Of a DNA stretch of 32,000 nucleotides, positions 5,513 to 25,421 are shown in pieces. The notes beneath the pieces were generated by a model. The model did not search any database. It was given only the letters and a program-made list of their open reading frames with translations, and was not told the DNA's origin. Numbering within the stretch: the first letter of the stretch is position 1; each line of letters begins with the position of its first letter. The DNA lies in assembly GCA_964347045.1 (NCBI GenBank), contig CAYFXC010000001.1, positions 219,256 through 251,255 on the forward strand, written 5' to 3'. Made by a program: the position numbers and the translations under genes. This DNA comes from an uncultured archaeon. Lineage in GTDB: Archaea; Asgardarchaeota; Hermodarchaeia; Hermodarchaeales; Hermodarchaeaceae.

Positions 5513-5621
5513 TGGTGGGCCGAGAGGGATTTGAACCCTCGACCATCGCGGTGTAAGCGCGATATCATAGCCTTCTAGTCTAAAAGGGAAAAACCCATGA
5601 AGATAGCTAGACCATCGGCCC
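5513..5621 (-). tRNA. tRNA-Val (UAC) with a ~31-nt intron in the D-loop, CCA encoded
   Basis: Acceptor GGGCCGA/UCGGCCC, anticodon arm UCGCG-CUUACAC-CGCGA, T-arm GAGGG-UUCAAAU-CCCUC. The D-loop is interrupted between AGCU and AGGCUA by about 31 nt (about 5574-5604). The exact junction is ambiguous because of GCUAU direct repeats. Confidence 0.85.
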
Positions 5622-5688
5622 AACCTGTGGTGAGATGTTTAATAGCTCCATAAAAAGCTTCTCGAAGCCAAATTAGTAGTAAAAAAAA

Positions 5689-10731: not shown

Positions 10732-12037
10732 TTATAATTCGTCAAAAGTGTGAATGCGCATTTTCGCTGGTTTCTTAACAATATTACCCACTCGTACTCC
10801 GATTATTAATTCGATGCCGCGATTTTCTGCGATGTCAATAAGTCGTTGGGTCACAACGCCATCTAATATGAGGACTTTTGCTTTTTTGAGTTCTTGTAGT
10901 TCGTTTGCTAGCTCCCCAACATGAGTTTCTTTGAGTTGTTTGAAGTCATCATCCAAAATAACAGACATCATCGTCTGCTGAATTTTTTCAGCTGAGCTAA
11001 GGATGGGTTTTGGTAAACCCAAATCTTTTACCATAGGTTCGGGTTTTTTAGCCGGCTTTGTTCGCGTAGGAGGACGCGTCTTCTTAGGACGCGATTCCTT
11101 AGGTTTTTTGGCTGGAGCCCTACGAGTGCGCTTCTTTTCTTTTACTTTATCCGGCGTGGAGGGTGTTTTGCTTTTAGGTCTTCCAATAACTTGTACAGAT
11201 GGAACCTTATTTCGGAGGGCTTTTGTTACTTCTTTATGTGTTAATTCTTCGACTTCTCTTCCTGTTGGTGCACGTGCCACATAATCGACTTTAATAACTT
11301 GTGAGAGCTCTTTGAAAATCAGGTCTCCTCCACGATCTCCGTCTAAGAATGCAATAACGGTTTTATCCTTTGCAATGTCTGCAATTGATTTTGGAATCGA
11401 TGTTCCCTCGACGGCGACAGCATTTTTAACACCTGAGCGTAGAAGGGCGAGTACGTCAGCACGTCCTTCCACAATAATGATGGTGCTTGAGGTTTTTGCT
11501 TCTGGCCCAGCGGGAAGTTTTTCTTTCCCAAGTTTAATAATCTCTGCAGTACGTGCCTCTCGTAATACTGTATCTGTCATTTCTTGGGAATCAGGAGAAA
11601 TTTCTCCTTCCCAATCACGAAGGAGATCAACTGCACGATCAATGATTTGTTTACGCTTCTCTTCTCTGACATCCTCTACTTTTTCGAGACTGATTTTAGC
11701 AGCACACGGACCAACTCTATCAACTGTTTCAATTGCCGCTGCAAGAATTGCAGTTTCTGTTCTATCAAGACTACAAGGTATTGTGATGGTACCTTGTGAT
11801 TTTCCACTTTCAGTATGAAGTTCAACTTTTATTCGACCAATTCGCCCCGACTGTTGTAATTCCCTTAGGTCCAAATCTTCACCGATTACCCCTTCACATC
11901 TATGATATGAAGTGTAGGCCCTCTGTTTGACCAAATAGAGCACCTACCACATCGGGGGTTTCAACTACTCCATCTATTTCGATTTTTCCACGAATACAAT
12001 ATTTTGTGGTTCCAGTACTTTCCGCATTTGCTCCCAT
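10732..12037 (-). CDS. dnaG: archaeal DnaG (Toprim primase-like, exosome-associated); reading frame broken by a 28-nt insertion
   Basis: ORF 11900..12163 carries [34 protein letters not shown] 10732..11943 continues with [21 protein letters not shown]...[11 protein letters not shown]..., a Toprim domain ([10 protein letters not shown]...DGDRGGD) and a Lys/Pro-rich linker. Start is placed at ATG 12037 ([13 protein letters not shown]) with an AAAATATC TATA-like box about 35 nt upstream. Confidence 0.85.
11887..11914 (-). repeat. 28-nt palindromic insertion flanked by TA/TA inside dnaG
   Basis: Minus sense CACTTCATATCATAGATGTGAAGGGGTA. It contains a 9-bp hairpin CTTCATATC-ATA-GATGTGAAG. TA at 11887-88 repeats the flanking TA at 11915-16. 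Removing it restores the dnaG frame. Confidence 0.7.
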
Positions 12038-16851: not shown

Positions 16852-16973
16852 AGTGGCGCAGTTCACACTTTTCCCGACACCTCTCGGATATCAGTACTCA
16901 GCGCGACGAAACCGGCTTAACTTCCGGGATCTGACGAGACCGGGTGTGGCCCAGCTTCTATGACCGCGCCACC
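16852..16973 (-). rRNA. rrf: 5S ribosomal RNA (unlinked to 16S/23S in this window)
   Basis: Minus sense GGUGGCGCGGUCAUAG...CCCGGUCUCGUCAGAUCCCGGAAGUUAAGCC...GCGCUGAGUACUG...GGGAA...CUGCGCCACU. A 10-bp helix I joins the ends, with the conserved GAUCCCGGAAGUUAAGC and GAGUACUG blocks. 122 nt. TATA upstream, T-rich tract downstream. Confidence 0.9.
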
Positions 16974-17026: not shown

Positions 17027-17103
17027 TGGTGGGCTGGCCGGGATTTGAACCCGGGACCACGAGGTCCCAAACCTCGCATCATACCGAACTAGACTACCGG
17101 CCC
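17027..17103 (-). tRNA. tRNA-Pro (UGG), no intron, CCA encoded
   Basis: Anticodon arm CGAGG-UUUGGGA-CCUCG, T-arm CCGGG-UUCAAAU-CCCGG, acceptor GGGCCGG/CCAGCCC (C5-A68 mismatch). Confidence 0.85.
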
Positions 17104-17168: not shown

Positions 17169-17831
17169 CTAACCTCCCGCCAATCGTTCAAACCGAAACC
17201 GAATGTAATAGTACGGCTTCCCCTCCGTGAAATTGACCTTCGGAGGCCTTGCAATAATCCCGAAATGCTTCTTCAAAAGACCCACAAGCTCATTCAGAAA
17301 CCCCCTGTCCTTCTGCTTCAACTGCACTCTCTTCTTATCAATAAAACCATCCGCATCAATTAACCCAAACATATAATGCTTAAAGAGCGAAGCATCATCT
17401 GCAATCAACGCAGGAACCCTAATATTTCGTTTCTTTCCTGATTGAAAACCCAAAGCAATGAAAAAGAAAAAAACCGCCGCACAGTTGATATTGATAGCGT
17501 AACAATTCTTCTTTCTTTTATCTCTATGAATGCGTGGCTGATAATGAAAGAGCTCTCGGATTAGAACTGATAACTGTTCCATGTAATTTTTCCGACCCAC
17601 AACATTTACTCGATAATAGTACCCCCCTATCTTGCGTTTACACTTGTTCAGGTTACCATCACCCGCAACAACACCAGCAAAATATGCAACTTTTTCGCAA
17701 AGTTTCGGGATTTTTATTCGTGTTTTTTTTGTGCAAATAAAGTCATTCTGAATTCTATGCCATACACGAGCTTCACTCAGAGCCTGCGAAATTACATTTA
17801 CATCTAAACTCTTCATTCCAACAGTTTGCAT
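17169..17831 (-). CDS. LAGLIDADG homing endonuclease family protein (two-motif, monomeric type), free-standing
   Basis: 220 aa with two LAGLIDADG motifs: YFAGVVAGDGNL and YMFGLIDADGFI, about 100 residues apart. Basic, Lys/Arg-rich DNA-binding-like regions. Confidence 0.85.
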   Translation of the reverse strand: MQTVGMKSLDVNVISQALSEARVWHRIQNDFICTKKTRIKIPKLCEKVAYFAGVVAGDGNLNKCKRKIGGYYYRVNVVGRKNYMEQLSVLIRELFHYQPRIHRDKRKKNCYAININCAAVFFFFIALGFQSGKKRNIRVPALIADDASLFKHYMFGLIDADGFIDKKRVQLKQKDRGFLNELVGLLKKHFGIIARPPKVNFTEGKPYYYIRFRFERLAGG

Positions 17832-20242: not shown

Positions 20243-20842
20243 TCATTTATTTGCAACAATATCGGCAGGTGATACAAGATAATAGGTTGTTTCTCCTTGC
20301 CGATCTAATACAGCCAGCATCAGTTTCTTGCGGTTTCGTTTCGCCTGTTTGCTAAATGCCTCTAGCTGTCCTACCTTCAGAGGTGATCCTTCTGAGATTG
20401 CGCAGACAAAGTATTTTGCTGTAGCTTCGTTGAGTTTTGCTCCCCGTGGGTAAACTCGAAACAATAATCCTTTCCCATATCCTGTTCGAACCACATATCC
20501 ACGGCTTCGTAAATCACTATAGACAAGAAAACGAGTCCAAAGCCCAGGACGGTTCTTCGCTAAGCGTTCAAGTAATGCCGAAAAATCAAGGATTTCGCCT
20601 TGTGCTTCGCTCACCTCAATCCGCTGGCGTCTCACTAACAATAAGGCTTCTTCCGGTTCAAGCGTTAACTTTTGTTCATCTTTCAATGTTCCATAATAGC
20701 CCGCTTCATATAATACGGGGGCATATTCACCTTTTATACTGACTTTTCCCCGTGTTAATATTGCCTGAATAGGTTCGTCGGGAAGCTGAGAGTGCTCTTC
20801 TTCTGACGAAGGTGGTTCCTGTTTCTTTTTTATCATTAACAT
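20243..20842 (-). CDS. endA: tRNA-splicing endonuclease (EndA) family protein lacking the catalytic His
   Basis: YSDLRSRGYVVRTGYGKGLLFRVYPRGAKLNEATAKYFVCAI...NRKKLMLAVLDRQGETTYY aligns by eye with M. jannaschii EndA YKDLRTRGYIVKTG..DFRLYERGANIDKEHSVYLVKV...VRKKLLIAIVD. Tyr and Lys of the triad are present. His is replaced (EATAKY versus KEHSVY), and the C-terminal domain has no His at all. Confidence 0.75.
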   Translation of the reverse strand: MLMIKKKQEPPSSEEEHSQLPDEPIQAILTRGKVSIKGEYAPVLYEAGYYGTLKDEQKLTLEPEEALLLVRRQRIEVSEAQGEILDFSALLERLAKNRPGLWTRFLVYSDLRSRGYVVRTGYGKGLLFRVYPRGAKLNEATAKYFVCAISEGSPLKVGQLEAFSKQAKRNRKKLMLAVLDRQGETTYYLVSPADIVANK

Positions 20843-21435: not shown

Positions 21436-21567
21436 CCCGGCGTAGCTCAACCTGGTAGAGCGTCTGGCTGTAGGTATACACCGCACCCTGAGCCACACGG
21501 CGATGACTCGGTGTCAACCAACGCAGATACCAGATGGTTCCTGGTTCAAATCCGGGCGCCGGGACCA
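21436..21567 (+). tRNA. tRNA-Tyr (GUA) with a 55-nt canonical (37/38) intron, CCA encoded
   Basis: C1-G72 acceptor CCCGGCG/CGCCGGG (archaeal Tyr identity). Anticodon stem UCUGG/CCAGA, loop CUGUAG|intron 21474-21528|A. The central 4-bp helix CUGU/GCAG and the 3-nt bulge AUA are present. Confidence 0.9.
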
Positions 21568-21618: not shown

Positions 21619-21726
21619 GCCCGTTTAGTGTAGCCAGGTCTATCATCTGGGACTGTCAAGGGTCTATGAAACTCATAGAGCTGCGGATCTCCTAGGACTC
21701 GGGTTCGAATCCCGGAACGGGCGCCA
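21619..21726 (+). tRNA. tRNA-Asp (GUC) with a 30-nt canonical (37/38) intron, CCA encoded
   Basis: Acceptor GCCCGUU/AACGGGC, D-arm GUGUAGCCAGGUCUAUCAU, loop CUGUCA|intron 21659-21688|C, T-arm UCGGG-UUCGAAU-CCCGG, discriminator G. Confidence 0.9.
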
Positions 21727-22058: not shown

Positions 22059-25000
22059 ATGGCACTTACGTCTGAAGATCGTTGGGCAGTTATGAAATCC
22101 TTTTTTCTGTCGAAGGGGTTAGTCCGTCAGCATCTGGACTCGTACAATCATTTTGTTGAACGGCGTGTTCAACAGATTGTTAGTGATGTAGGAAAAATCG
22201 AGCCAGATATTCCGAATTATTATGTGCGCTTAGGACGTGTTGAAATTCAGAATCCCTCCGTTCGGGAAGCTGATGGGTCAGTTCGGAATATTGCTCCAGC
22301 AGAAGCACGGATTCGAAACCTAACCTATTCTTCTCCAATTTACTTAGAAATGACTCCTGTTTATCGAGATGAGAAAACAGGGATGGAATATGATGAGGAA
22401 ACTACAAGCGTTTATGTAGGTAGGCTTCCTATTATGCTCAAATCCGCCTTTTGCCGCCTTTCAGCCATGACACCTGAAGAACTCGTTGAAGCTGGTGAAG
22501 ACCCCAATGATCCCGGTGGGTATTTCATTATCAATGGATCTGAAAGAGTACTTGTGACTCAGGAGGATCTTGCACCTAATCGGATTCTCATTGAAGAAGC
22601 TACGAGCAGCAGTGCGTGTACGCACATGGCAAAGGTGTTCTCGACTGCAAGGGGATTTCGGGCACCTGTTACAATGGAGCGGCGAGCGGACCATACGTTC
22701 CGTGTATCATTTCCTTCTGTGCCTGGAAAGATTCCTTTAGTGGTGTTAATGCGGGCATTGGGCTTAGTGACAGATCGTGAAATTGTCGATGCTATTACTG
22801 ATGATTCTACTCTTGCTCAAGAATTAATTCCAAGCTTTCATACGGCTGAATCGTTAGTAGCTCCGAAGGATCCCAAAGCTACTCGTGAAAATGCGCTAGA
22901 CTATATCGGTAAGCGAGTTGCGGTGGGTCAAACTAAGGATTACCGTCTTCGCCGTGCGGAACAAGTACTGAATCGTTATCTTTTGCCGCATATTGGTACC
23001 GATTCAGGGGCAGCGGTCAATAAGGCTCATTATGTTGGTCAAATGACTCAACGGCTCTTAGAACTTAGCGTTGATCGACGTCATGAGGATGATAAGGACC
23101 ATTATGCTAACAAACGGTTGAAACTAGCCGGAGATCTACTTACAAGCCTTTTCCGTGTGGCTTTTCTCAACCTCTGTCGTGACATCAAGTATCAACTTGA
23201 AAGAACTGCCACACGAGGACGCAAACCAAATATCAAAACGGCTGTTCGTGCTGACGTTATCACTGAAAGGCTTCGTCACGCCCTGGCTACAGGTAATTGG
23301 GTTGGCGGTAAAGCAGGGGTCAGCCAGCTCCTTGATCGCGTTAACTATATGTCTTCTATTAGCCATCTTCGCCGCGTCGTGTCTCCTCTCAGCCGAAGTC
23401 AACCACACTTTGAAGCTCGAGACCTTCATCCCACCCATTGGGGCAAAATCTGTCCTAACGAGACTCCCGAAGGCCCCAACTGTGGTCTTGTGAAAAACCT
23501 TGCTTTGATGTCTTACATTTCAGTTGGTTCTGATGAAGCCGAGGTGGAAGAAGCGCTTTTATCACTAAAAGTTCAACCAATTGATGCTAAATCCAGTTCA
23601 ACAAAAAAGGGCACTTATGTCTATCTGAACGGCCGCTTTGTAGGTAACCATGTACAACCTGAATTGTTAGTCACCCGGCTTCGTGATCGACGCCAACGAA
23701 ATGAACTTAGCGATCAAGTAAATTTAGCCTTCTACCCTGATACAAATGAGGTCCAAATCAACTCTGATGCAGGTCGAGTTCGACGACCTCTAATCATTGT
23801 CAAGGATGGTGTTCCACTACTTGAGAAACAACATGTGGAGCGCGTCAGGAATCGAGAAATCTCTTGGGATGACCTCGTGAAAGCAGGAATCATGGAATAT
23901 CTTGATGCGGAAGAGGAAGAGAACACCCTTATTGGCATGGATCTTGCTGATATTACTCCAGAACATACTCATCTTGAAATTGTACCTGAAACAATTCTAG
24001 GAATTTGCGCTAGTCTTGTACCCTTTGCTGAACACAACCAGTCACCACGCAACACGTACGAAGCCGGAATGGCTAAGCAAGCCCTCGGACTTTACTCAGC
24101 CAACTTCAGTCTTCGCGTTGACACACGTAGCCATATTCTGCACTATGTTCAAAGCCCGATAGTTACAACTCGACCCATGGAAGTAATCGGTTATCTTCGG
24201 CGTCCAGCGGGACAAAACTTCATTGTCGCAATTCACTCATTCCAAGGATACAACATTGAAGACGCACTTGTTATTAACAAGGCATCCATTGAAAGAGGAA
24301 TTGCTCGGTCATCGTTTTTCCGAAGCTATGACGCCGAAGAAAGAAAGTACCCCGGTGGACAAGAAGATAAATTCGAAATTCCTAGTCGGGAAGTCCGAGG
24401 ATATCGTGCATCAGAAGCCTATCGGTTATTAAGCGAAGACGGCGTCATTGAACCTGAATTCCAAGTGGGTGGTGATGAAATTCTCATCGGACGCACCAGC
24501 CCCCCACGGTTCTTAGAAGAATATACTGAACTTGAAGTTCCAGGACCCAAACGACGCGAAACATCAGTTAGTCTTCGCCATGGAGAACAAGGAACAATCG
24601 ACAAGGTTCTCATTACAGAAACAATTGATGGCAACCGGCTCGTCAAAGTCAAAGTTCGAGATGAACGCATACCCGAGTTAGGAGATAAGTTTGCTAGTCG
24701 TCATGGCCAAAAAGGCGTCATTGGCCTCCTTGCACCACAAGAAGATATGCCTTTTACGGAAACCGGGATTGTTCCTGATCTTGTAGTTAATGCCCATGCC
24801 TTTCCCAGTCGAATGACTCTCGGTCAAATCCTTGAATCAATGGGCGGAAAAATTGGTTGTTTACAGGGACAATCGGTTGATGCCACACCATTCTCAGTTT
24901 TTTAATGATACGGCGACCACCGAGATCTACACGAACTTGGCTTCAAATATAGTGGACGAGAGACCATGTACAACGGCGTAACTGGTCACAAATATGATGT

Positions 25001-25421
25001 CGACCTCTTCGTAGGTGTCGTCTATTATCAGAAACTCCACCATCTTGTTGCAGATAAAATGCATGCTCGCGCACGCGGTCCAGTGCAAATATTGACCCGG
25101 CAACCAACAGAAGGACGTGCACGAGAAGGTGGGTTACGTTTCGGTGAGATGGAACGAGACTGTCTTATCGGTCATGGAGCTGCATTACTTCTTCGCGAAC
25201 GACTCTTGGAAGAATCTGATAAATACATAGCAATGGTTTGTGAAGAATGTGGCATGCTTGCTGAATACGATCGAAATCGCGATCGATACCGCTGCCGGGT
25301 TTGCGCACCCAAAACAACAACAATTAGCAAGGTTGAGATGTCATATGCCTTCAAACTCGTCTTGCAAGAACTCATTTCTCTTGGTATATGGCCTCGGCTG
25401 AAACTTACAGATCGAACATAA
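22059..25421 (+). CDS. rpoB: DNA-directed RNA polymerase subunit B (unsplit); apparent break at 24903-24965 is caused by adapter sequence
   Basis: ORFs 22059..24905 and 24966..25421 are in the same frame and together give about 1120 aa. Conserved blocks: [74 protein letters not shown], and the C-terminal Zn motif CEECG...CRVC. Confidence 0.9.
24904..24932 (+). other. Illumina P5 flow-cell adapter sequence (AATGATACGGCGACCACCGAGATCTACAC): non-biological contamination
   Basis: Exact 29/29 match to the P5 adapter as I know it. It creates in-frame TAA TGA stops inside rpoB. Confidence 0.9.

Follow-up and report, generated by a model that had tools for sequence, protein, structure and literature searches.

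A probable relaxed bulge-helix-bulge intron interrupting dnaG in a Hermodarchaeia-like Asgard clade

Marck and Grosjean are said to have described, in 2003, archaeal tRNA introns with either strict hBHBh' or relaxed HBh' and hBH forms of the bulge-helix-bulge (BHB) motif, and a BHB intron in the pre-mRNA of crenarchaeal cbf5 was reportedly found by Watanabe et al. in 2002. The cbf5 pre-mRNA introns of Desulfurococcales and Sulfolobales are 16–44 nt long and mostly form unconventional BHBs (Yokobori et al. 2009, PMC2738675; for the definition of the motif see PMC6379350). They are cut by a hetero-oligomeric EndA endonuclease, as cDNA and in vitro cleavage experiments have confirmed, and the motif rule places the cut between the second and third bulge nucleotides (PMC2738675). 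In a 2020 paper, BHB motifs are still cited for one archaeal mRNA only, cbf5, and one Haloferax mRNA substrate is added (PMC7714728). The mRNA of Haloferax volcanii HVO_1309, processed by the archaeal splicing endonuclease in vivo and in vitro, resembles the case described below in this respect, but it represents another gene, that of a euryarchaeon, and the text consulted does not describe it as containing an ORF-interrupting intron (PMC7714728). In eukaryotes, HAC1/XBP1 splicing offers a further likeness: spliceosome-free cuts at RNA structures, joining by a tRNA ligase, and a change of frame (PMC13149111); it differs in the endonuclease, IRE1, in the stem-loop motif recognized, and in being regulated by stress. 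No report of an intron in dnaG, or of a BHB intron in an Asgard mRNA, was found in the literature searched, the coverage of which was incomplete, making this an absence of evidence only.

The dnaG gene considered here is located on the minus strand of a 32-kb stretch of DNA (the window, i.e., the whole sequence analysed), which also carries genes for an archaeal SRP RNA, 5S rRNA, tRNAs, and RNA polymerase subunits. It is an archaeal dnaG broken at ca. 11886–11914, within the motif FGQTEGLLGxxLDLRELQ. Read on the minus strand, the N-terminal ORF continues as ...GGT GCT CTA TTT GGT CAA ACA GAG GGC CTA CAC TTC ATA TCA TAG, while the downstream ORF picks up at ATC GGT GAA GAT TTG GAC..., in a different frame. 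Removal of the 28 nt at 11887–11914 gives a single 425-aa protein, which contains Toprim domains and matches the NCBIfam equivalog NF003108 over its full length with 517 bits (cut-off 300). The insert comprises a 9-bp hairpin with a 3-nt loop and in-frame TAG and TGA codons, and is flanked by TA; the 28-mer with its hairpin occurs once in the 32-kb window, the chance expectation being 0 matches. The original prediction of an interruption inside a conserved motif is confirmed by the ORF ends and the change of frame, and the hairpin, the loop, and both stop codons that it described are all found in the sequence. The interruption is very likely a pre-mRNA intron with a relaxed, tRNA-type BHB, removed by the endonuclease and rejoined by a ligase, as in crenarchaeal cbf5.

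The resemblance to cbf5 extends to several features. The predicted intron is short and lies in a protein-coding gene (28–31 nt in dnaG versus 16–44 nt in cbf5), its BHB is unconventional and relaxed with predicted cuts between the second and third bulge nucleotides, and its single site is conserved throughout a lineage. Like the cbf5 hosts, that lineage may have a hetero-oligomeric EndA of broad specificity, and the host gene functions in RNA metabolism, archaeal DnaG being an RNA-binding exosome subunit (PMC7667871). The two cases differ in the host gene and in the lineage, which is Asgard (Hermodarchaeia-like) and not Crenarchaeota; moreover, cbf5 splicing was established by cDNA and in vitro cleavage, whereas that of dnaG is predicted. 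With archaeal tRNA introns (PMC6379350) the dnaG intron shares the 4-bp central helix and the 3-nt bulge geometry, and the tRNA-Asp gene in the window has, by hand reading, an analogous helix H, CUGU/GCGG, with G-U pairs and an intron hairpin. Unlike the tRNA introns, the dnaG intron lies in the coding region of an mRNA, and the exon-exon helix, which the anticodon stem normally provides, is almost absent.

The predicted intron is 28 nt long (11886–11913; minus strand, as are all dnaG coordinates below), its sequence being ACUUCAUAUCAUAGAUGUGAAGGGGUAA, and the RNA around it is laid out as ...GAGG GCCU ACA CUUCAUAUC AUA GAUGUGAAG GGGU AAU CGGUG.... The end of exon 1, GCCU (11916–11919), would pair with GGGU at the 3' end of the intron (11888–11891) to form the 4-bp central helix H, with the pairs G-U, C-G, C-G, and U-G; 98.6% of its cells in the alignment are paired, and its 3' strand is identified by both alignment pairing and RNAalifold. 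On the 5' side, ACA (11913–11915; invariant in 18 of 18 sequences), enclosed by H on one flank and by hairpin h' on the other, would bulge out, with the 5' splice site between 11914 and 11913. The hairpin h' (11892–11912; 9 bp, CUUCAUAUC/GAUGUGAAG, loop AUA), whose helices 3 and 4 are paired in 100% and 93.3% of cells, would serve as the flanking helix, and AAU (11885–11887), on the relaxed side of the motif, would hold the second cleavage site, between 11886 and 11885. In the relatives this trinucleotide is AAU or AUU, and beyond it there is either one invariant G-C pair or a 2-bp exon-exon helix turning the bulge into a 2x2 internal loop. The central 4-bp helix and the 3-nt 5' bulge with helices on both sides, as in archaeal BHB introns, are present, while the second 3-nt bulge closed by an outer helix h, as in strict hBHBh', is lacking. 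As modelled, the dnaG motif fits the relaxed HBh' class only, its outer exon-exon helix being weak.

The BHB cut rule applied to this fold gives the intron ACUUC...GGGGUAA (11886–11913) and the predicted mature mRNA GGC CUA C|UC GGU GAA GAU, coding for G L L G E D. Exon 1 (11914–12037), with the ATG at 12037–12035 and a GGTGG motif 5 nt 5' of it, would accordingly encode MGANAES...FGQTEGL and supply the first base, C, of a split Leu codon, and exon 2 (10732–11885, stop codon included) would begin with UC GGU GAA GAU... and contain the Toprim domain. In each of the 17 sequences tested, whose introns measure 28, 29, or 31 nt, this cut restores the frame and GLLGED, and GLLGED/LLG is the most frequent form of the motif among other archaea. 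The 28-nt deletion originally proposed does restore a single DnaG ORF, but the L-I-G junction it creates is probably wrong: it gives LIG or LFG, inconsistently within the clade, while the BHB cut gives L-L-G throughout, and the variation (AA or AU) affects the two bases of the second bulge that lie on the intron side. Folding by hand at those earlier boundaries, where the TA repeat allows three equivalent 28-nt deletions, yielded helix H with none of them. The earlier view that no convincing BHB can be folded across the junctions does not hold, since one does fold with the boundaries moved 1 nt toward the 3' end, and RNAalifold agrees independently.

Pairing, a slide control, and RNAalifold were all performed on an alignment of 18 sequences. 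In the proposed structure 97.2% of the cells are paired, compared with 37–55% when the 3' partners are slid by 1–3 columns. Pair 17-52 of helix H is G-C in 10 sequences, G-U in 7, and unpaired in 1; in the hairpin, pair 32-43 is U-G in 9, U-A in 5, C-G in 2, and unpaired in 2, and pair 33-42 is A-U in 14, G-C in 2, G-U in 1, and unpaired in 1. Helix H shows G-C/G-U and C-G/U-G variation, and double-sided covariation is confined to pair 33-42; the sequences are closely akin in the dnaG region, so that much of the conservation of pairing could reflect shared ancestry. RNAalifold, given no structure, returned the same 4-bp H, 3-nt bulge, and hairpin, together with a weak helix between the exons (13-14 paired with 55-56, and 5-7 paired with 57-59). 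The BHB core is part of the minimum free energy (MFE) fold in three relatives (L111, L003, and L118); the window sequence has its MFE, -18.4 kcal/mol, in a slightly different fold and reaches -17.9 kcal/mol with the BHB core enforced. The loop is hypervariable, with variation in every column (ATA, GCT, GTT, GGGT, GGC, GGT, AGT, ACA, ACT, TCC, CCT, and others). A scan of the whole window for minimal BHBs gave ca. 3,900 occurrences per 8.9 million position/length combinations (ca. 4e-4), and at this rate one would not be expected by chance in the exact frame-restoring place and next to a 9-bp h'. When the window was scanned for other frame-restoring introns, the matches merging two ORFs lay mostly at gene ends, and dnaG alone was convincing.

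The same interruption is found in close relatives and is absent elsewhere among the loci compared. In species-representative genomes, 80 archaeal dnaG loci were compared; in 73 of them the distance from the F of FGQTEG to the D/E of (D/E)LDLR is exactly 30 nt, and four more, unpaired by the search pattern, read through in one frame, bringing the uninterrupted loci to 77. Only L001–L003, three close relatives (one of them Hermod_124), span 58, 58, and 59 nt, with inserts of 28, 28, and 29 nt at the identical position. A clade-specific metagenome scan and contig look-ups brought the number of distinct junction sequences to 18, the insert measuring 28, 29 (L003), or 31 nt (L111); the alignment with dnaG of close relatives, proposed originally as a check, shows it at the same site in these sequences. 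These sequences come from independent assemblies and belong to one Hermodarchaeia-like Asgard clade, with DnaG 61–99% identical; some of the genomes have a frame offset of +1, and another has +2. Synteny is kept around the gene: TYW2/Trm5, TyrRS, a small Toprim protein, a 47–49-aa orphan ORF, the "dnaG" ORF, a 94-aa ORF, AtpD, NAC, and a PUA protein. It is worth mentioning that one metagenome contig, L086 (ca. 1392–1440), matches L084, L085, and L087 exactly around the intron, and upstream its start-codon region ...GGTGGCGATTATGGGAG is joined straight to ...ACCCCCGATG, most of exon 1 being gone and the remainder out of frame; this contig was probably collapsed in assembly or is a chimera.

The protein databases mirror this distribution. 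All 53 protein clusters 63–99% identical to the repaired DnaG are devoid of the N-terminus (64–94% query coverage, 331–443 aa), whereas almost every homolog of at most 55% identity (labelled Loki-, Jord-, Frey-, Baldr-, Odin-, and others) has the full length. In the close relatives the spurious N-terminus, ...RAYTSY(H/Q/R)..., is the insert translated in the downstream frame. Every recovered database DnaG of the clade is mis-annotated in this way, the entries being 331–411 aa long with the N-terminal part missing, and the 47–49-aa orphan ORF is called upstream of the truncated DnaG in all the public assemblies of the clade examined (L111–L118 and the window).

The pattern of substitutions differs between codon positions and between exons and intron. 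In exon 1, read in the spliced frame, the variable sites at codon positions 1, 2, and 3 number 10 of 38, 9 of 37, and 35 of 37 examined, and in exon 2 they number 16 of 50, 7 of 51, and 49 of 51; near-neutral sites are ca. 95% variable in this sample. These counts show strong purifying selection on both exons when they are read in that frame. Within the intron 15 of 28 columns are invariant, whereas in the adjoining exons this is true of 4 among 88 third-codon positions (Fisher p = 3e-8), and the synonymous exon positions of the motif (the A in CUA, the C in CUC) do not vary either, which indicates that the intron is constrained as RNA and not as protein. Among the explanations listed in the original prediction, a tiny RNA-level intervening sequence is the one favoured by conserved structure, restoration of the frame, and selection.

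Removal of the intron would require two activities. The splicing endonuclease EndA would cut each bulge between nucleotides 2 and 3, and an RNA ligase of the RtcB type would rejoin the exons, ...GAGGGCCUAC being joined to UCGGUGAAGAU..., i.e., ...GGCCUAC|UCGGUG..., the predicted product being the 425-aa DnaG. A protein search with the junction-spanning peptide returned no joined product from the clade. The window does contain an EndA-family (tRNA intron endonuclease) gene coding for 199 aa (20243–20842, minus strand), with the N- and C-terminal domains of the family (Pfam PF01974 and PF02778). The catalytic His of M. jannaschii EndA (PDB 1A79) is presumably that of ...KEHSVY..., and the aligned protein from the window has Thr (...EATAKY...), which suggests a non-catalytic, structural subunit of beta type. 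Such a subunit would be consistent with a heteromeric enzyme, and the protein is a candidate subunit of the intron-cutting enzyme; the catalytic alpha subunit is not encoded in the 32-kb window, and an RtcB ligase gene was not located. An (alpha-beta)2 EndA with an L1 loop, a feature that has been linked to recognizing relaxed BHB motifs, is reported for Asgard archaea (PMC5829648).

Three tRNA genes in the window also contain introns. Those of tRNA-Tyr(GUA) (21436–21564, plus strand; ca. 55 nt) and tRNA-Asp(GUC) (21619–21723, plus strand; ca. 30 nt) are located in the anticodon loop, with the central helices, determined by hand, CUGU/GCAG and CUGU/GCGG, respectively; the tRNA-Tyr intron seems to have no adjacent h' helix. 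The third, of ca. 31–32 nt with approximate splice sites, lies at a non-canonical place, in the D-loop region of tRNA-Val(UAC) (ca. 5520–5622, minus strand). This gene is missed by ARAGORN and matched by Rfam at model positions 8–63 only, but ARAGORN calls a tRNA-Val once 30–36 nt are deleted. A tRNA intron in the D-loop would imply a broad specificity of the endonuclease. Just upstream of tRNA-Pro (17027–17103) and 5S rRNA (16853–16971) there is a free-standing ORF (17169–17831, minus strand) with a LAGLIDADG-like domain (PF14528), located outside any obvious intron or intein.

A different reading of the locus is that the gene is truly split, coding for a peptide of ca. 45 aa and a C-terminal protein of ca. 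380 aa, with the hairpin acting between the two cistrons as a regulatory or stability element. In every relative the gene callers predict two ORFs, and in most sequences the N-terminal frame stops inside or just past the insert, as would be expected of two genes; but the C-terminal piece has no conserved start, the callers choosing variously GTG, TTG, or ATG, or a start inside the motif. Furthermore, the motif that is broken midway here runs uninterrupted in 77 other archaea, the cut defined by the structure restores frame and motif exactly in every sequence, and a simple spacer fails to account for the constraint on the nucleotides of the bulge and helix H. A split gene is quite unlikely.

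Translational recoding, by ribosomal bypass or by a frameshift across the hairpin, is very unlikely. Bypass is known from phage T4 gene 60 and from the yeast mitochondrial "byp" elements, and an insert that is short, forms a hairpin, contains stop codons, and lies in an essential-looking ORF bears a superficial resemblance to them. However, the original remark that matching take-off and landing codons are absent proved right, an upstream CUA being opposed to a variable GUA, GCA, or GAA downstream. Inserts of 28, 29, and 31 nt produce unequal offsets, and with +1 and +2 in different genomes the data are incompatible with a fixed ribosomal frameshift; nor was a fixed offset combined with a slippery site in an open frame overlap, as in programmed frameshifting, found here, the insert of L001 having stops in both frames and leaving almost no window for a frameshift. 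Finally, the nucleotides that are conserved are those of the BHB.

It is highly improbable that the insert is a miniature mobile element or the footprint of a transposon at TA, which could at most be the origin of the intron. The palindromic core and the flanking TA of the window sequence point that way. A covariance model, R1, of the 35-nt core scores 58 bits at 11885–11919, the hairpin read on the opposite strand being the only other match in the window above 12 bits; on the gene strand, across 86 kb of related loci, it finds just one match per dnaG locus, with 32–62 bits, L111 being matched even though it was left out of model building. The search for further copies suggested originally has thus revealed none beyond the dnaG site, either in the 32-kb window or in the 86 kb of related loci, while a MITE would be expected in multiple dispersed copies with a conserved duplication. 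The TA flanks noted originally do exist, but they are not conserved: the second copy is CA in 10 of 18 sequences and AA in 1 of 18, so it is not a target-site duplication. The position is, moreover, orthologous throughout a deep clade. With one copy per locus, none elsewhere, and an unconserved TA, neither the element nor the excision footprint offered in the original prediction is retained.

An assembly or sequencing artefact or a decaying pseudogene, both also raised originally, has a practically negligible probability even though the same window holds one proven artefact (an Illumina adapter in rpoB), for the insert occurs at the same site in 18 distinct variants from independent projects and assemblers, in conserved synteny, which excludes assembly error and a recent pseudogene, and both exons have third-codon positions near saturation and positions 1 and 2 conserved. 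The artefact in question affects rpoB (22059–25421), where an in-frame TAA TGA at 24903–24908 results in apparent ORFs of 948 and 151 aa. The sequence at 24904–24932 (plus strand) is an exact 29-nt Illumina P5 adapter, AATGATACGGCGACCACCGAGATCTACAC, substituting for a coding sequence of equal length, and the relatives L119 and L120 are uninterrupted at this site (SGKKLE(T/N)MFQ(D/E)L, the same length). A 15-nt mini-intron was considered for rpoB and ruled out by the exact P5 adapter and the normal coding sequence of the relatives; the rpoB split is an assembly artefact, not an intron. The presence of an adapter in rpoB shows that oddities of a single assembled genome need comparative support, which the dnaG intron has and the rpoB split lacks.

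The pre-mRNA intron in dnaG, if fixed across an Asgard lineage, would make dnaG the second gene family with a BHB intron in archaeal mRNA and, as far as could be found, provide the first such mRNA intron in the archaeal group closest to eukaryotes. What is new is the host gene and the Asgard lineage, BHB introns in archaeal mRNA being already known from cbf5. It may be proposed, by analogy and as an unlikely extension, that the intron is a retained control point, the full-length DnaG being gated by EndA and the ligase in the manner of HAC1/XBP1 splicing. If so, the unspliced mRNA would give the 45-aa peptide only, and the strong conservation of the intron in a class-level Asgard clade would reflect regulation, beyond the need to stay cleavable. 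For annotation, a check for BHB introns should be built into the gene finders and "pseudogene" filters applied to Asgard genomes. The dnaG intron bears on RNA processing in Asgard archaea and offers a simple, natural test substrate for any action of Asgard EndA and RtcB on mRNAs.
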